This document shows, piece by piece, positions 557 through 8,089 of a stretch of 64,000 nt of DNA. A program made the translations under genes and the position numbers. The notes under the pieces are model-generated. The model did no database searches. It had not been told where the DNA came from and saw nothing but the letters and a program-made list of their open reading frames with translations. Origin of the DNA: an uncultured Candidatus Saccharibacteria bacterium (GTDB lineage Bacteria; Patescibacteriota; Saccharimonadia; Saccharimonadales; Saccharimonadaceae); the NCBI GenBank assembly GCA_963456275.1, contig CAUOLJ010000003.1, positions 201-64,200 of the forward strand. Direction: 5' to 3'. Each line of letters opens with the position of its first letter. Positions within the stretch are counted from its first letter, which is position 1.

Positions 557-2017
557 TTACAATATAACATTACTCCACTCAAACATACTCCTGCCTAAGT
601 CTTCTCTATTAGTGATTCCAGCGCGAGAAAATACGTGCAGCAAATTTTGATTACTACATGACATAAATAAGTCGTCATAGTTACGAGAAATATTATGCCA
701 TATCCTGTCCTTAGTTTCTAAATAATCACTATTGATAATCTTGCATATCATACATAGAAAATCTTTATCCTTAAGTTTTTCTATAAACTCTGGTATATAT
801 CGTTCCCATGAAGGACCTAGTAGAATTCCTAATAACCACGGAAATTTTCCAAACATTAGATACTGTATGATATTGCCATCAAGGTATGTCTGCAGGAGGC
901 TTGGATTGTCAGCAAAACGCTCTTGCAGGAGTTGAGTTGTCGGGAGTGTAAGGTTCGCATCTTTTAATTTTTTATAGTGATCTAATACATGTTCAGGATA
1001 GTTTATTGTCGTAATATTTTCCAGATCTATATTATTAGCGATCGGGAGGAGACTACTTGGATTAATTAGTCTTATTTTTGCTATTGTTGGCAGTATGGTC
1101 CATGACTTGCTATCAACGATAGAGCCAACGATTAAGGATATTATTTCGTTGATAATCAAAGAATAGTACTCGATTGAAATTTCATGAGATATACTAGTAT
1201 TTTTAGAAATTTCAGCGTAGTGATCTAGAATAATTTGAATTGATTTGTATGCCTGTTCTAGTATATCCGCTCTTTCGTATTCAGCGGCCTTTTCAAGAAT
1301 TTCATGTAGCTCAATAGCTATGTCTTTAGTAGCACAATACGCATTATATACATTTGCTGTGTATTCCTCCGCTGCTACGCCTTCGTTAAATACACCAGGT
1401 GATAAGTCTAAGTATTGCTCATAGGTGTTTGCAAAATAATCTCTTATAGTTTTCTTTGCTGGCTTTCCGTTTTCAATTGCGCGAATAAGACTATCTTTAT
1501 AGGATTGAGTTTTGTTAATTTTTTCTTCGTTTGCCAACGAATCCAGGTGTGCTACGATAGCCTCCTTTAGGCTTCTCTTTAGTAATATAGCTTTATTATC
1601 TTTTTTTATAGAAAACCCTATCGTTCTTTGATGGGCAATATCAAATGGCAGTTCTTCCATTCTACCCAGATCAATATTTGCAACTTGGATAACCTTCTCC
1701 TCTGTGTGCTTACCAATTGCATATCCAAGTTCAAACATCACGTTTTGATTAACGATACCTTTTCCAGACTTGCCTCTGTCAATAATGGATACGTCTGCAA
1801 GAAAAATGCCGCAATTATTAATCTTTTCCTTGATGGTGGCTCCTATGTTAACGGCTCCTACCGCACCTTTCGTATCCTTATCTAATTCGACTCTTGGTGA
1901 CTCTTCTAATGCAGGAGTGTCGGAGATTTCTTTAATAACATCTAGCAGGGTTTTTTCGATATGACGTCGTGTTTTCGGGTGGTTAGACTGCCATGAATAA
2001 AATACTTTTCTTTTCAT
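557..2017 (-). CDS. TIR-like / nucleoside-deoxyribosyltransferase-like nucleotide-binding domain protein, probable defence gene
   Basis: N-terminal KVFYSWQS...IFLADVS...NQNVMFELGYAIG...LPFDI motifs; long divergent C-terminus; AT-rich. Confidence 0.7.
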   Translation of the reverse strand: MKRKVFYSWQSNHPKTRRHIEKTLLDVIKEISDTPALEESPRVELDKDTKGAVGAVNIGATIKEKINNCGIFLADVSIIDRGKSGKGIVNQNVMFELGYAIGKHTEEKVIQVANIDLGRMEELPFDIAHQRTIGFSIKKDNKAILLKRSLKEAIVAHLDSLANEEKINKTQSYKDSLIRAIENGKPAKKTIRDYFANTYEQYLDLSPGVFNEGVAAEEYTANVYNAYCATKDIAIELHEILEKAAEYERADILEQAYKSIQIILDHYAEISKNTSISHEISIEYYSLIINEIISLIVGSIVDSKSWTILPTIAKIRLINPSSLLPIANNIDLENITTINYPEHVLDHYKKLKDANLTLPTTQLLQERFADNPSLLQTYLDGNIIQYLMFGKFPWLLGILLGPSWERYIPEFIEKLKDKDFLCMICKIINSDYLETKDRIWHNISRNYDDLFMSCSNQNLLHVFSRAGITNREDLGRSMFEWSNVIL

Positions 2018-2084
2018 AATATTCCTCTAGTTTAGTATATTACATTTCAGGTTTGAATAAGGGTTGCAAAATTAGTACATTAAT

Positions 2085-2111
2085 AAAACAAAAAGACGCA
2101 CCAATAGCGTC
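2085..2111 (-). terminator. Probable intrinsic terminator downstream of the RT operon
   Basis: Minus strand GACGC-TATTGGT-GCGTC followed by TTTTGTTTT. Confidence 0.5.
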
Positions 2112-2120
2112 CTTATCCTA

Positions 2121-2185
2121 ATTGGTGGTAATTTACGCCAAAGCTCGAACCCATTTCGAGCTTAAAAGCTGAGCCATGTAGGCTC
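2121..2185 (+). repeat. 65-bp inverted repeat, left copy (partner 5273-5337)
   Basis: Reverse complement matches 5273-5337 at 58/65 positions by hand alignment. Confidence 0.9.
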
Positions 2186-2392
2186 AGCCCCAACGCCTGT
2201 GCCAGCAAAGCTGGCATGCGTCCAGTCAGAAAAACCGCTCCTTGAATTATCTTTTTGAAATTTCCCCGCCTTATTTTTCTCTTTAGTTGAAAGGGTCGGA
2301 TTTTTTCTGTCGGTCCGCCCACCGAAATCGGTGGAGGCGTTGTGGCTTCGCTCGGGCGGCAGAACCGCCACATCTTTGCAAGCAAGGCGTTC

Positions 2393-3394
2393 CTAACGCT
2401 CAACATATTCTTTATAGCGCAAAGTCGATTTTCGTTTTTTACGTATCGTGGTATTTCTCCTTCGGGACTCCTTATACCTATGCGTCAAGTTGGCTAACTT
2501 CCATCGAGTTTTCGTACCGAGTGTTAATGAGTTTCTATTCATCTGTAATCCCAGATGCTCAAAACCTCGCTTTCCTTGATAAATTCCATCTATGTCGTAT
2601 TCGTCGCCGGAATGGTATATGATTTTGGTTTTTGCGTCATTGAGCGGCAGCTTCTGATTTTTGTCGCTCTCAAGAATAGTCTTGATTTTTGGATAAAGCT
2701 TCATCATATCCTCTTTGGTGATTCCACTTGCCGTAATAGCAATATCATCAACGTAAATAGCAATACGAGGATCTTTGCCTTGTAGCTCCTTTTTCACAAG
2801 TCGCTCGAGCCTGAGGAATGTATCGAGATTACACCATACCGCCAGGCGAGACGAAGTTGAAAACCCGCGGGCGATTGTCTTATAAGTTCCGGGGTTATCT
2901 TTCGCACCAATTGGCACACAACAAAGGTCGGCCAGCAATCTTGCACCTCTTTGCCCACATTGACCCTTGGCTAAAAAGAAGCTATAGACACGTTCATATT
3001 TAATTTGCTCAAAAAACCGTGAAACATCCAGCTTGAGGATAATTCGCTTCCGCTTTACTCCGAGCAGGTGTGTTACTGCGACTTTATGGTTCCGTCCGCT
3101 CACGCCTCCGAATACGAACGTTGGAATAAGTGAGTCATGGGGAGCTAAAACTTTTACATTAATAAGCTTGAGTAATTTTCCCAGGTCGGTGCGCGATGCG
3201 TCGCGCACCCATTTACCTTTTTCGGGTTGCGATTGTGTGGGATGGTCAGTCCAGTAGTTGTCGTAGTTCATCTTAACGTCGCTTACCAGTCTTGCCATAT
3301 CCTCAACTGAATCTCGCTTATCACTTAAACGTTTCGCAAGCTCTCGCTTGCTCCGAATGGCGATTTTAGGATAGTTATGTTGGTTATTTTTCAT
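2393..3394 (-). CDS. Reverse transcriptase, retron-like (333 aa)
   Basis: LKLDVSRFF (RT3), ARGFSTSS (RT4-like), IYVDDIAIT (catalytic YxDD), HLGL; RT-only size, no maturase or endonuclease domain. Confidence 0.92.
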   Translation of the reverse strand: MKNNQHNYPKIAIRSKRELAKRLSDKRDSVEDMARLVSDVKMNYDNYWTDHPTQSQPEKGKWVRDASRTDLGKLLKLINVKVLAPHDSLIPTFVFGGVSGRNHKVAVTHLLGVKRKRIILKLDVSRFFEQIKYERVYSFFLAKGQCGQRGARLLADLCCVPIGAKDNPGTYKTIARGFSTSSRLAVWCNLDTFLRLERLVKKELQGKDPRIAIYVDDIAITASGITKEDMMKLYPKIKTILESDKNQKLPLNDAKTKIIYHSGDEYDIDGIYQGKRGFEHLGLQMNRNSLTLGTKTRWKLANLTHRYKESRRRNTTIRKKRKSTLRYKEYVER

Positions 3395-3710
3395 TGCGCC
3401 TTAATAACTTTGCTCGTTCTTTGATGAGATGATTTTGTAACTTGGTACCCCAACCTATAAATTGTTTTTCAATAACAGATAGTTTTTTACCGTTTTCGAC
3501 ATTCTCTCCATACAAAAAAGGAGTTATCGAGGCCGGGTGTACTTTTAAGCCATCAGCAAGCTTCAAAATTAGCTTTTTTGACACCTCTTTTTGTCCACTT
3601 TCGACCATAGCAATCAAAACCGGCGACACATCTATGGCCTTAGCAAGCTCGGTCTGCGTTAAACCAGCTTCGTTGCGTATCTTTTTGATTAGTTCTGGGA
3701 ATGAATACAT
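3384..3710 (-). CDS. XRE/Cro-family HTH protein, overlapping the RT start
   Basis: IKKIRNEAGLTQTELAKAIDVSPVLIAMVESG; 11-nt overlap with RT. Confidence 0.92.
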   Translation of the reverse strand: MYSFPELIKKIRNEAGLTQTELAKAIDVSPVLIAMVESGQKEVSKKLILKLADGLKVHPASITPFLYGENVENGKKLSVIEKQFIGWGTKLQNHLIKERAKLLRRNEK

Positions 3711-3729
3711 TGTTTTACCTTCATAACGA

Positions 3730-3897
3730 CTACAAGCCGGAGGTAATTTGACTTAAATCATGTCGCGGATAATTCTGACTATTTGTAAAATAATCTTCAT
3801 TATCCGCAAGACCTTGGTAAAAGTCTTCATTATTACCCTCCGGCTTGCGATACGGATGCCACAGTTTAGTTGGTAAAGAAATAAGTTGCTTTTCCAT
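3730..3897 (-). CDS. Unannotated 55-aa ORF (MEKQLISLPTKLWHPY...ITSGL) enclosing the peptide ORF in another frame
   Basis: AAAGGAAGG Shine-Dalgarno at 3910-3902, ATG 3897, TAG 3732-3730. Confidence 0.5.
   Translation of the reverse strand: MEKQLISLPTKLWHPYRKPEGNNEDFYQGLADNEDYFTNSQNYPRHDLSQITSGL
3753..3830 (-). CDS. Unannotated 25-aa cationic amphipathic peptide MKTFTKVLRIMKIILQIVRIIRDMI, candidate toxin
   Basis: GGAGG SD at 3841-3837, ATG 3830, TAA 3755-3753; SD paired with CCTCC at 3743-3739. Confidence 0.65.
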   Translation of the reverse strand: MKTFTKVLRIMKIILQIVRIIRDMI

Positions 3898-3914
3898 ATG
3901 GCCTTCCTTTCTAA

Positions 3915-4217
3915 CAAGCTAGATTAAAATATTTAGTTAGTAAAAGTTGGACAATCTTACTCTCGGGGCTATCGTTTCGATTGGTATAGACATCCGGTAA
4001 TACCCTAGTCGGCAAGATATAAATCTCGTAGCCCCGATTTGGATAGTCCCTGTGCTGGAAGCATTGCTTCAAGCCACGTAACATGTACAACGCGCGGAAT
4101 ACCGACCCGTGGTACAAGTCCTCACTCTGAATGGAATGGGTCAAATGCGTTTTATAGCATCTCAATCTATCGATTTGACAGCTTTATCGCTAAACTGATT
4201 TTTAACTTACTAGCCTG
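3915..4217 (-). ncRNA. Candidate RT-associated ncRNA (msr/msd-like)
   Basis: Ends pair (CAGGCUAG 4217-4210 with CUAGCUUG 3922-3915, plus UUAAAA/UUUUAA and UUUAG/CUAAA); internal stems 3963-3971/4029-4037, 4058-4070, 4140-4146/4173-4179. Confidence 0.6.
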
Positions 4218-4222
4218 CTACC

Positions 4223-4252
4223 AGTATATACAAAACGTATAAGTCCTGTCAA
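4223..4252 (-). promoter_or_regulatory. Sigma70 promoter of the RT operon
   Basis: TTGACA (4252-4247), 18-nt spacer, TATACT (4228-4223); predicted start about 4217. Confidence 0.7.
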
Positions 4253-4267
4253 GACTTTGGTTCACCC

Positions 4268-5157
4268 AACTAACCTGGAACAGCCATAGCAAACCGTAGG
4301 AATGCTATTGGGCTGGCGAACAGTTCTGGCTGGTTAGCTCTTGCCATCCATTCTCGGCAAAGAGAGTCTAGCTGTCTCGTCAGGATTCTTCCTCCGAACA
4401 GCTTCCGAGCATGCCGCTTCGTCACGCTCCAGATATTCTCTCCTTGGTTGGTACCGGCAAAGCACTCTTTGCTATGATTCCAGCTCTCATGGGCGTAGCC
4501 AAGTAGTTCTAGCTCGTCATACGCCCACCATTTGTCGCTTGCCACTAGGCTGCCTGCTACGATGTAGTCCTGAACAAATTGTTCAAGCGGTTGTCTATCC
4601 CGGCTGTCGGTAATGCGTAGGGCAATGCGCCCAGTCGCAGTGTCTTTAGCGCCAACTACGATGCGCTGAGGCTGTTTGGATCGCCTCTTGCCAAAGTAGC
4701 TTTCATCTACTTGCACCACACCCTCCAATATAGCGGTGAGCTTGCTGCTGTCAGGCAGTTGCTTGCGAAATCGGGCAAACCAGCGCCGAACAGTAGTATA
4801 GCTTACGCCAGCTAATAGATATGCCTGCCGTTTCTGTTGAGCGTTTTGTTTGCCAACAGTAGAGCAGGATGAACAGCTGCCGAGAACTTAGCTTCATGCC
4901 GTATAGCCAGCTAGCCTGGTAGCTGGTTGGACGATGCTTCTTGCGACAGAACTTGCACCATAGATATCTGTTGCAATAGCTCTCCTGAAGACTTGTGCGG
5001 CAGCGAGGACACAATACCTCATCGCCGAAAGCCAATTTGTTAAGGATCTGCCAATATTTCTTGTTACTGGCAAACTTTGGTATGGTAGACATTAGGAACA
5101 CCTCCTTTTACTTAGTTGCTATTCACTCCTAAGTTTACGGGATGTTCTGGTTTAGTT
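4268..5157 (-). mobile_element. IS1595-family insertion sequence
   Basis: Zn-ribbon plus ISXO2-type DDE transposase; imperfect terminal inverted repeats 4268-4285 and 5140-5157 (14/18). Confidence 0.8.
4270..5092 (-). pseudogene. IS1595 transposase, frameshifted
   Basis: CPRC..CKFC in the 5' frame, VQVDESYFG..SDKWWAY..H in the 3' frame; frames joined by removing a TGCC duplication at 4822-4829. Confidence 0.85.
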
Positions 5158-5272
5158 TAATGGACCTGCGAGACTTAGCGTTGCATTTATTCATGATGAT
5201 ATCTACGACGATAAGATATTCCAGTCTTGGCGGTAGACCTTGGTGGTAAAGTAGTTTTAGTTTGAGAGCGCG

Positions 5273-5337
5273 GAGCCTGTACAGCTCAGCTTTTACGCTT
5301 GAAATGGGTTCGAGCTTTGGCGTATATTACCACCAAT
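5273..5337 (-). repeat. 65-bp inverted repeat, right copy (partner 2121-2185)
   Basis: 58/65 identity to the reverse complement of 2121-2185. Confidence 0.9.
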
Positions 5338-5629
5338 AGAACTAAAACGGTCGCCCATTTGGGCGACGAAATATCAGCAATTTTGTATTGGTGCGGAATT
5401 ACAGAACCTACTCAAACTTTTTGAATACATTATGGATTACCCTGGTCCAGCTCCAGCAATAAAAAGACGTACAGCGCAGCATAAACAAACGCTATCAATT
5501 ATTTATTAGTAGCAATCTGTTGTGATATCAGAAGATAGTTTACAGGGGGTTGTTACTCTTTAATACGTAGAAATGTCATTCCGCTATGTAAATGGTAAAT
5601 TTTTGGGTGCAAAGTTGCCAATACTTTTT

Positions 5630-5800
5630 TTAAGCGTGCCAATAATGATTAGGGCTAATTGAGTAGTATAGAATTGTAAAGAAACCAACGCCAACCAGGC
5701 ATAGTAAGATGTGTTTTATAATACTATGTCCCTTTTGCTCTCGTACATAGTTAAAATTTTCTTGTTTTGTGTTTCCTGATGATTGTTGATGGTTGTTCAT
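5630..5800 (-). CDS. Unannotated 56-aa small membrane protein (MNNHQQSSG...HILLCLVGVGFFTILYYSISPNHYWHA)
   Basis: GGAGG SD, ATG 5800, TAA 5632-5630; one hydrophobic segment. Confidence 0.7.
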   Translation of the reverse strand: MNNHQQSSGNTKQENFNYVREQKGHSIIKHILLCLVGVGFFTILYYSISPNHYWHA

Positions 5801-5823
5801 AATACCTCCATTATTTAATTATT

Positions 5824-5941
5824 AAAAAAGGACAGCCACTGCTGGCTGTCTAGACCCACAACGAGAAGTTTTATCCCTATTGCTTTTAGCAAATGGCTGC
5901 CCATTTTCGGGATAAAATGAGCCCTGTTGTGAATCTAGACA
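5824..5941 (-). ncRNA. Structured leader or sRNA with overlapping intrinsic terminator
   Basis: Nested stems 5847-5854/5934-5941, 5857-5862/5926-5931, 5869-5877/5909-5917, 5880-5884/5888-5892; terminator 5831-5850 plus T6; extended -10 TGCTATAAT at 5956-5948. Confidence 0.6.
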
Positions 5942-6361
5942 TTATCTATTATAGCATTTTGATGTAAAATTTGAATTTCTGATATAATAGGTAATGTAAT
6001 TAATAAAATAACCGCATTCTAGTGTGGCTACATAGCGGAGACGGACCGCGTAAAAAACGGGTAGCACATTTACACATTAGAATAAGCATACGAGAACAGC
6101 TCGGTAAAAATGGGGCTTTTAGCGGACTAACTGAAGTAACTGCTTCAAGGAGTCTCGTATGTCCCCTTCATCTAACCGAAAAGTTTTCATCGATGACAGT
6201 ATATTAAAGTTGCTCAATGTATTGTTTAAATATAGCGACAAGCACAATGAAAAAATAAACACCACATCAAATAGACAGCGCTACATAATCAATAGAGGAG
6301 TAAAAATCCTTTTATAGTTCCCTATAGCCTAAATTAGCTCTAACTATAGGTAGGGGCTATA

Positions 6362-8026
6362 ATGGGAATTATGCAGAATAATAATGATTCTATAAGTGTA
6401 AAATTACTATTAGATAAACTTACGGGCGGTGGTCCTGAAAGCAGTGAGGACTCGCTTAAGCCCGTACGCTATGGGTTGTACGCCCGTAAGTCTACTACAA
6501 GCGAAGATAGACAGGCTTCATCAATAGAAGACCAGATAAAGGAGTGCGTAGATAAGGTTATTACACCAAACGGCTTAAATGTCAAAAAGATATACAAGGA
6601 AAGCTTTTCTGCTAAAATTGCAGATATACGTGATGAATTTAATAAACTTATAGATGATATTGAAAACGGAAGGATAGACGGCTTGATAGCTTGGCATCCT
6701 GACCGCCTATCACGAAATATGAAAGAGGCGGGTGTTATTATCGACCTGGTGGATAGGGGCTTAATTAAGGACCTAAGATTTGCAACATTTACATTTGAAA
6801 ATAATCCGGCGGGTAAAATGCTGCTCGGCATTACGTTTGTGATGGCTAAACAATATTCTGAACATCTCTCCGAATCGGTGGACCGTGGCAATAAAAGAGC
6901 CATAGAAGACGCTGAGTTTATCGGTAAGTTCAAGCATGGCTACATACTAGACTCAAATCGTTTTTTCCAACCTGACCCGAAGAATTTTACAAAGGTTAAA
7001 CATATATTTGAATTAGCTCTAGACGGTAAATCCCAGAAAGACATTAGAGAATGGATTAATAGACAAAATTATACTGTTCAAAAGCGTGCAGGAGGTCCTT
7101 ACCAAAATCATGATTGGTCCAAAGATGATATTTCAAAGACTCTTAAAGACCCCTTTTATGCTGGTATTTTAAAATGGGGCAAGCATTACAAAAATTTATT
7201 AGAAGAGTATGATTTTCAGAGTGCAATTACTGTTGATGAATATCTAAAAATAAATAAGATTGATAGCTTAGATTCCTCTAAAGTTTATGCTATCAACAAG
7301 CCAAAAGGTGGTGAAATATTTGCGAATTTATTTCGGGGTGGAGTCGTTTGTGGGGCTTGCAATGAGCCCATGACTTCAATGGTTACAAATAAGCGGAATA
7401 AGGTAACGGGCGAAAAATACGATTATAGATATTACTATAAGTGTGAAAACGGACACTGTAATTTCAACGGAAAATCGATTCGCGCAAAAAGTATTATTGA
7501 TACGGCTGAGGCATTTTTTAATAGTTACTTATTCATTAATAAAAGTAATTATTTGGTAATAAAAGAAAGTGCTGAAAAATCTATAAAATGCAAAGGGGCT
7601 AATCTTGCTAGCGAGATAGCTAGCTTAAAACGAAAAATAGCACTTAAAAAGCAACATTATGAACAGACAAAGGCTCTCATACTAGAGAATCCAGAACTAA
7701 AGGACTATTACAATCTTGGCGAATTTCTTGATGAACAAAAGGAATTAGAACAACGTTATGAACTGGTGGCTAATCAAAAACGCTTACTAAAGGATTCGTT
7801 GATTACATTTGATGAATATCTCAAACTTTTTAAATCCCTCCCTGTTATTTTTGAAAAACTTGATGATATGAATGAGTTGAACCAACTACTAAAAATATTC
7901 TTCTCTAACTTCATAATTGAACCCATTAAAAAAGACACTTTTAAGGGGTCAAAAGTATCCTATAAACTAAATGAACCCTGGAAAGGGTTCATTGAATCAA
8001 ATGATTTCGTTTGTGGTGCGGGTTAG
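6362..8026 (+). CDS. Large serine recombinase (resolvase, recombinase and Zn-ribbon domains)
   Basis: YARKST catalytic Ser, DRLSRN, CGAC...YYKC; stop codon lies inside the tRNA 3' end. Confidence 0.95.
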   Translation: MGIMQNNNDSISVKLLLDKLTGGGPESSEDSLKPVRYGLYARKSTTSEDRQASSIEDQIKECVDKVITPNGLNVKKIYKESFSAKIADIRDEFNKLIDDIENGRIDGLIAWHPDRLSRNMKEAGVIIDLVDRGLIKDLRFATFTFENNPAGKMLLGITFVMAKQYSEHLSESVDRGNKRAIEDAEFIGKFKHGYILDSNRFFQPDPKNFTKVKHIFELALDGKSQKDIREWINRQNYTVQKRAGGPYQNHDWSKDDISKTLKDPFYAGILKWGKHYKNLLEEYDFQSAITVDEYLKINKIDSLDSSKVYAINKPKGGEIFANLFRGGVVCGACNEPMTSMVTNKRNKVTGEKYDYRYYYKCENGHCNFNGKSIRAKSIIDTAEAFFNSYLFINKSNYLVIKESAEKSIKCKGANLASEIASLKRKIALKKQHYEQTKALILENPELKDYYNLGEFLDEQKELEQRYELVANQKRLLKDSLITFDEYLKLFKSLPVIFEKLDDMNELNQLLKIFFSNFIIEPIKKDTFKGSKVSYKLNEPWKGFIESNDFVCGAG

Positions 8027-8089
8027 GAGACTCTAACTCCTGGCCTCTTCCATGGCAAGGAAGCGCTCTAACAACTGAGCTAAACCCGC
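8014..8089 (-). tRNA. tRNA-Gly(GCC)
   Basis: 76-nt cloverleaf GCGGGTTTAGCTCAG...CTTCC TTGCCAT GGAAG...CCCGCACCA. Confidence 0.95.

Follow-up and report, generated by a model that had tools for sequence, protein, structure and literature searches.

The window analysed here is a stretch of 64,000 nucleotides of contig CAUOLJ010000003.1, from an uncultured Candidatus Saccharibacteria bacterium. Its minus strand carries a locus with the order ncRNA, small ORFs, helix-turn-helix (HTH) gene and reverse transcriptase (RT) gene, in which the HTH gene (3710-3384) overlaps the RT start at 3394. The two genes and the elements controlling them are:

2393..3394, minus strand: reverse transcriptase of 333 aa with YVDD (Pfam RVT_1, 8e-12; top PADLOC match RT_VI, 3.5e-23)
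3384..3710, minus strand: HTH protein of the Cro/C1 type, 108 aa (Pfam HTH_3, 2e-14; top PADLOC match HTH_VI, 1.4e-12)
4223..4252, minus strand: sigma70-type promoter TTGACA-18-TATACT, an 11/12 match to the consensus and similar in homologues; start of transcription inferred at ~4216
4227..4241, minus strand: palindrome TATAC-N5-GTATA overlapping the -10 box, predicted HTH operator

Class, promoter and neighbourhood of the locus

The order published for type VI retrons is ncRNA-SP-HTH-RT, according to the accessible parts of the sources (10.1101/2025.10.22.683967; 10.64898/2026.04.27.721009; Mestre 2020, PMC7736814). The locus resembles these retrons in gene order, in the top PADLOC matches of both proteins (RT_VI and HTH_VI), and in an amphipathic helix encoded between the ncRNA and the HTH gene. 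As in type VI, the coding region of the small protein forms part of the folded ncRNA transcript, and its RBS is sequestered in that structure. YVDD is also the motif of the nine canonical RTs from which it was extracted. The canonical set comprises ten loci outside the Patescibacteria that are similar to an Aeromonas RT scoring with RT_VI, the only one that was scored against the profile.

The runner-up PADLOC profile for the RT is RT_IV (1.7e-14; 52 bits vs 80 for RT_VI). Within YVDD, Y214, D216 and D217 are invariant, and H103 is nearly so. G282 is likewise invariant, but it stands in HLG where region Y of retrons has VTG; the RTs of the clade have HLG or ILG for the VTG or ITG of canonical type VI. 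A quick tree, built without a type IV/V outgroup, placed 27 rows of the clade on one side (support 100). They sit on a long branch, next to 11 rows of canonical loci. The locus is likely a type VI-like retron. Its membership is not clean, because the RT scores 80 bits against RT_VI and a canonical member 335 bits, and because of the long branch and the HLG in place of VTG. A Levybacteria RT is entered as type VI in the part of a retron census table available to us (PMC10849725).

The pattern TATAY-N5-GTAT is present in 44 of the 47 dereplicated loci with enough flank, and the palindrome has three exact copies in genome G000. It lies between the -35 and -10 boxes and is a likely HTH operator, suggesting transcriptional autoregulation. 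The word "operator" is absent from both type VI preprints (10.1101/2025.10.22.683967 and 10.64898/2026.04.27.721009), as judged by a term search.

Contigs assembled from public RNA runs cover 3718-4205 in 7/7 runs, six of them recorded as RNA and one guessed. In one run the contig of a relative extends from 3742 into the HTH gene; the RT gene is covered in 0/7 and the HTH gene partly in that one, where lack of cover proves nothing. Such contigs represent a small share, cannot rank genes, may derive from DNA in the libraries and are no proof of transcription. Contigs of two studies end at 4195-4205 and that of a DNA run continues, a weak hint that the 5' end of the transcript is near the predicted start.

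The region 557-8089 is likely a defence island. It includes a TIR-like ORF (557-2017, below the Pfam cutoff), pieces of the IS1595 family (4270-5101), and a serine recombinase (6362-8026) that ends at a tRNA-Gly (8014-8089). Two loci from the genus of the window genome (L015 and L017) represent another lineage of RTs with YVDD, in which a structured ncRNA is present and a single-frame, SP-like ORF of ~53 aa directly precedes the RT, with no HTH gene in between. The RT of a further locus (L016) is preceded by an ncRNA-like region and an ORF of ~40 aa that has a strong SD and encodes a product with a hydrophobic C-terminus; the ORF also contains an internal repeat.

Homologues were taken from genome contigs (13 loci), from metagenomes (the best 80 of 98) and from genome searches (6 loci). 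Where a source is named, it is nearly always a member of the Patescibacteria, and no relatives were found in viral contigs. A single-protein search of 101 related genomes returned, besides the RT of the window itself, only distant RTs. An RT and an HTH start were found in 91 of the 105 sequences examined, the others having no hit, flank or RT match. After exclusion of two copies of the window, three loci with short flank and one locus (L094) with a TAG at codon 4 of the peptide described below, 85 loci including the window remained, of which 51 were retained at <90% identity and 44 at <80% identity. The loci are related and the counts over the 85, 51 and 44 loci are not independent, so that independence is overstated in all of them. 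In L094 the leader is intact, and the locus may be a disarmed copy or an assembly error.

A conserved open frame around a nested peptide

Between the ncRNA and the HTH gene lie two overlapping ORFs and an 11-bp perfect inverted repeat, which we call the lock:

3902..3910, minus strand: SD-like sequence of the leader, AAAGGAAGG, -7.8 kcal/mol with a generic anti-SD, 4 nt before ATG 3897
3730..3897, minus strand: leader ORF of 55 codons ending in TAG, in the -1 frame relative to the peptide; its frame is conserved, its sequence is not
3753..3830, minus strand: ORF of a basic amphipathic peptide of 25 aa (MKTFTKVLRIMKIILQIVRIIRDMI), predicted membrane toxin and SP equivalent
3837..3847, minus strand: 5' arm of the lock, containing the peptide SD (GGAGG, 3841-3837)
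3733..3743, minus strand: 3' arm of the lock (anti-SD), ending at the leader stop 3732-3730

The leader stop directly follows the 3' arm of the lock and lies 19 nt from the HTH ATG at 3710. These elements had been described in an earlier, sequence-only reading, and all of its coordinates check out (SD 3910-3902, ATG 3897, 55 codons, passage through both hairpin arms, stop, and 19 nt to the HTH start).

Called by hydrophobicity and blind to the leader, the peptide is 21-31 aa long, basic and amphipathic in all 85 loci. Its median hydrophobic moment is 0.71 and its median net charge +4. It starts with ATG in 47/51 loci and with a near-cognate codon at the same fixed position in the other four (L023, L032, L080 and L095, where it apparently begins with GTG, TTG or CTG). 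The peptide SD reaches -5 kcal/mol or lower in 42/51 loci and lies within the lock. SD strength was calculated as pairing with a generic anti-SD, because the 16S tail was not found in genome G000, in which 166 of 469 long ORFs have SD-like starts. Three of the peptides matched 0 Pfam families and that of the window 0 NCBIfam families.

In all 51 dereplicated loci the -1 frame has an ATG 50-95 nt upstream and is open from there to the peptide start. The same test gave 0/51 and 1/51 in the other two frames; the 50-95 nt range was set post hoc, and the control frames were tested identically. The leader, 45-61 codons long across homologues, stays open past the peptide stop in 83/85 loci and in 49/51 after dereplication. 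Synonymous resampling predicts a frame open across the peptide in 15.4±3.1 of 51 loci with the codon usage of each locus, and in 22.6±3.4 with uniform usage. Anchored on the lock helix, a single leader phase was found in 50/51 loci, spacer lengths change in steps of 3, and the leader ends at the foot of the lock, 11, 14, 17, 20 or 23 nt past the stop of the peptide. The two exceptions (L032 and L067), whose leaders end 7 and 25 nt before the peptide stop, retain a stop at the lock base and may be disarmed copies or assembly errors.

The open frame might be an untranslated by-product of RNA structure and of codon choice in the peptide. RNA helices do constrain much of the leader, and for the window by itself chance would leave the -1 frame open across the peptide 44% of the time (p ~0.44 by synonymous resampling), which is why homologues were needed; over these, the open frame far exceeds chance. 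Among the 44 loci, however, TAA, TGA and TAG are the three most depleted triplets of the -1 frame (2 seen vs 49 or 28 expected), and the same triplets with another first base show no similar depletion. The ATG and the frame-keeping spacer lengths are conserved as well. This explanation is thereby largely refuted, and we regard it as very improbable. Comparison between loci shows selection on the leader frame, on its start, and on its stop at the foot of the anti-SD arm.

The amino acid sequence of the leader is poorly conserved. Median identity is 0.26 for the leader and 0.17 for its unpaired 5' part, compared with 0.43 for the peptide and 0.56 for the HTH protein. The frame is thus kept open in 83/85 loci while its sequence drifts to a median identity of 26%, which is the behaviour that the sequence-only reading had suggested looking for in homologues.

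That reading had also allowed for the leader being a second small protein. An acidic protein that acts as partner of, or antitoxin to, the basic peptide would be one example. A complete ORF with a fixed stop and a length of 45-61 codons would suit such a role, as would its median net charge of -1 vs +4 for the peptide and its recurring residues (P in 92%, Y and L in 80% of loci). We find the proposal improbable, since the sequence drifts in a frame that is kept open, with an identity of 0.17 in the part of the leader that takes part in neither RNA pairing nor overlap. The residues that recur coincide with covarying RNA helices or are dictated by the peptide frame. The apparent motif ELxxPY, for example, lies on the arms of the helices P1 and PK described below and alters with them (L047, L013 and L091); these helices account for this one apparent motif of the leader. 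The leader has no match among the families of Pfam, PADLOC and NCBIfam or in the ESM Atlas.

A quite improbable alternative is a programmed +1 frameshift fusing the first ~23 codons of the leader to the helix, which would yield an SP-like protein of ~48 aa. Speaking for it are the canonical loci, all ten of which have a single SP frame running from SD to stop and encoding a polar N-terminus and an amphipathic C-terminal helix. Their SPs measure 47-73 aa by a longest-ATG rule. In the clade, the junction is close to an SD-like motif and to a pseudoknot. Against this, the peptide has its own ATG or near-cognate start at a fixed position in every dereplicated locus, and in 17/51 a stop in the peptide frame lies at most 5 codons upstream of the peptide start. 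No slippery codons are shared, the 51 junctions having 48 different triplet contexts. The other frames of canonical loci are closed over the SP span; in L105 the -1 frame is open over the helix only. In the clade, then, it is the leader whose start and end fall where those of an SP would be, and the helix has a separate start. Profile comparison (hhalign) with canonical SPs gave probabilities of 0.5% for the leader and 1.2% for the peptide.

Covarying helices that join the leader to the ncRNA

About 320 nt of structured RNA precede the small ORFs (z -6.0), and the fold of the region around the lock beats all 200 shuffles (z -5.0). The arms of the lock pair with -20.3 kcal/mol in cognate and -10.8 in non-cognate combinations, and no other sequence in the locus outcompetes the lock. 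Further pairings involve the following segments:

3949..4050, minus strand: long stem-loop of the ncRNA, candidate msd, with arms 4050-4029 and 3971-3949
3989..3996, minus strand: 5' segment of helix PK, in the loop of the long stem, pairing with leader codons at 3860-3853, just 5' of the lock
4190..4197, minus strand: 5' arm of helix P1, near the 5' end of the transcript, pairing with leader codons at 3869-3862
3853..3869, minus strand: leader codons 10-15, forming the 3' arms of P1 (3869-3862) and PK (3860-3853)
4210..4218, minus strand: 5' arm of helix P0, pairing with 3922-3914
3914..3922, minus strand: 3' arm of P0, just before the leader SD

Pairing partners were found by a best-match search in a fixed window, and the nulls by the same search. 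For PK, 391 of 392 cells are paired over 49 loci with 23 distinct sequences (non-cognate null 314±5.5), and every position has double-sided changes and two or more types of Watson-Crick pair. A stem of at least 21 pairs encloses the PK segment in 48/48 loci folded with the segment held unpaired; the pairing is therefore a pseudoknot or an alternative fold. For P1, whose 3' arm consists of the next seven leader bases upstream of the PK arm, 302 of 315 cells are paired over 45 loci (null 262±4.6). P0 is less uniform (cognate -11.4 vs non-cognate -8.6 kcal/mol, n=45) and is clear in 22/45 loci at a shuffle p of 0.05 or below. An additional helix, in which the sequence 5' of the PK loop would pair with the tail that follows the leader stop, fits close relatives of the window by eye and was rejected, as it does not hold clade-wide.

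The link of the leader to the ncRNA is hence stronger than first noted, as leader codons pair, with covariation, with two segments of the ncRNA. The stated distance of 5 nt between the ncRNA stem and the leader SD holds (3-5 nt, depending on where the 3' arm is taken to end) if that stem is 4218-4210/3922-3914. The long hairpin ends 38 nt before the SD. Three candidates for the helix closing the msDNA template are P0, P1 and the PK junction; a conserved branching G at the inner end of P1 was not seen by eye across homologues.

In a folding computation, opening the peptide RBS costs a median of 24.0 kcal/mol, and 13.2 kcal/mol with a ribosome footprint at the leader stop. With the footprint 30 or 45 nt earlier the cost is 18.8 and 21.4 kcal/mol. 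Placed 15 nt before the stop, the footprint is equally effective in opening the RBS (11.7 kcal/mol), and 12-13 kcal/mol remain, so that termination is not singled out by the calculation.

The 5' extremity of the transcript can also pair with the 3' arm of the lock (cognate -8.2 vs -7.0; 0/2000 permutations). In seven loci (L009, L065, L067, L068, L073, L078 and L087) it is a repeat of the 5' arm of the lock and varies together with that arm, which would allow it to capture the anti-SD arm; matching changes occur in L065, L067, L068 and L087. This pairing bears on the main rival reading of the leader, which is possible though unlikely. The leader would be translated to feed the SD-less HTH start by termination-reinitiation, to repress the toxin start, or both; reverse transcription from P1 would copy the start of the leader and destroy it, and the 5' end, once free, would take hold of the anti-SD arm and so turn the toxin on. 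Such a role would account for the frame staying open to its end. The HTH SD reaches -5 kcal/mol or lower in only 2/51 loci, and the leader stops 4-24 nt before the HTH ATG in 50/51 (full range 4-38 nt). Furthermore, P1 encloses the leader AUG at a distance of 22-46 nt from the 3' arm of the helix, and it is at this arm that a template would start if P1 is the a1/a2 helix. The leader stop, however, is fixed to the lock and not to the HTH start, which occurs in all three frames and at variable spacing. Capture by the 5' end is clear in only 14/45 loci, the window (p 0.23) not among them, and is weaker than the lock in all loci listed.

Proposed control of the toxin and comparison with known systems

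A frame that stays open while its sequence drifts makes a regulatory leader similar to mok the best reading, and a second functional protein unlikely. We favour, with moderate confidence, a leader that is a translated regulatory frame whose ribosomes unlock the nested predicted toxin and which is gated by RNA bound to RT and HTH protein. Leader ribosomes would melt the hairpin that hides the RBS of the predicted 25-aa membrane toxin. In the resting state, a complex of RT and HTH protein would hold P1 and PK, barring ribosomes from starting or passing on the leader and keeping the lock shut. A phage trigger would then alter the RT complex by reverse transcription, by pairing of RT-DNA to the loop, or by loss of HTH protein or RT from the RNA. 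Ribosomes could now traverse the leader and open the lock, and their passage and termination on the 3' arm would prevent it from closing again. The toxin start, 90-110 nt upstream, would thereby become accessible to a second ribosome, and the same termination may also supply the SD-poor HTH start.

Because the anti-SD arm lies 3' of the toxin gene, the leader must be read as far as this arm for the lock to stay open. That selection preserves an open frame as far as the anti-SD arm is what the alignments indicate; translation of both frames, toxicity of the peptide and gating by RT and HTH protein we infer. Activation of the toxin and feeding of the HTH start are compatible functions and not exclusive. 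Speaking against an unlocking role, elongating ribosomes could also block the toxin start. Leader SDs are weak in most loci, reaching -5 kcal/mol in 15/51, with strong ones being lineage-specific, and together with the scarcity of strong HTH SDs (2/51) this fits coupling to the HTH gene equally well.

A rather doubtful variant is a DNA-based hok/sok circuit, in which the RT would erase the leader start in cis, msDNA would act as a Sok-like antisense in trans, and phage would free the leaders. If P1 is the a1/a2 helix, the leader RBS and AUG fall inside the reverse-transcribed template that it closes. As an antisense strand, msDNA would target the PK loop as well as the leader start. Phages interfering with the RT or with msDNA would leave the leaders translatable, ribosomes would open the lock, and the minimal 25-aa helix would kill the cell. 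The canonical SP gene of type VI would in that case have been split into a regulatory frame and a toxin frame.

New here is the strongly covarying pairing of leader codons immediately 5' of the lock, both with the loop of the long ncRNA stem and with the 5' end of the transcript. Control of a retron by a leader of the hok/mok style was not found in literature searches, in which subscription journals were thinly covered. Searches that joined retrons to Patescibacteria and leader peptides, to uORFs and translational coupling, or to Saccharibacteria and the candidate phyla radiation retrieved nothing. The arrangement is also absent from the publications retrieved on retrons with type I toxin-antitoxin systems, overlapping frames or mok, as judged from titles and the beginnings of abstracts. 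The terms "out-of-frame" and "upstream ORF" do not occur in the two type VI preprints, whose supplements, like that of Mestre 2020 (PMC7736814), may include members of the clade.

For the step from msDNA and RT to the toxin, the accessible text of Zhang et al. proposes an undefined riboregulator (10.1101/2025.10.22.683967). There, the SP of Retron-Vpa2 is translationally repressed in a hybrid RNA bound by RT and HTH protein, and is released by msDNA. Garcia-Rodriguez et al. describe, in the part available, post-translational control in another lineage, Retron-Sen3, where SP is made constitutively and neutralised by the HTH protein (10.64898/2026.04.27.721009). The clade studied here would offer a defined switch, in which leader frame, toxin frame and three covarying helices are separately mutable. 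If the proposed mechanism is true, ribosomes would link a retroelement to a toxin of the type I style. In type VI loci that seemingly have no SP, short SP genes may hide under an overlapping frame. Our data also document a retron lineage across the Patescibacteria.

The proposed element of Vpa2 is a 7-nt direct repeat, whereas the ncRNA loop of the clade is complementary to the leader (inverted repeat). No Vpa2-like 7-nt direct repeat is conserved clade-wide; the only repeats are the lineage-specific ones between the 5' end and the lock arm. In five canonical loci (L105, L109, L111, L112 and L113) there are two copies of GGCGA, one in the loop of a hairpin and the other close to the SP RBS, and by eye this matches the Vpa2 repeat. 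Canonical type VI has one SP frame, and the clade has a drifting leader in the SP position with the helix as a separate ORF of 21-31 aa.

In length and in its basic amphipathic helix the peptide resembles single-helix type I toxins such as TisB and DinQ. It differs from them in genetic context and in matching no HMM. Feature look-alikes of one peptide in the Atlas (L002) score 0.79-0.82, where scores below 0.9 are leads only. The absence of Pfam and NCBIfam matches likewise gives no assignment to the Hok/Gef family, and Rfam returned nothing at gathering level, with two matches at chance level.

The closest parallel in design is hok/sok with mok, and also the proposed ldrX of ldrD/rdlD, where an out-of-frame leader overlaps a membrane-type peptide with a hidden RBS and the amino acids of the leader are apparently unimportant. 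The likeness to mok that had been proposed from the sequence holds in that the out-of-frame leader overlaps the peptide RBS. The leader differs from mok in two respects, as no conserved Sok-like antisense promoter was found (a consensus scan, which could miss one, gave 21/51 loci vs 16.5 expected, at scattered positions) and as selection keeps the leader open to the far end of the lock. According to the accessible parts of two sources, it is enough for mok to be read as far as the hok SD (PMC9841398; PMC4147584). Reading past the hok start is thus unneeded, whereas here the anti-SD arm lies 3' of the toxin coding sequence and the leader is open to it. The gate is here predicted to be a retron RNP.
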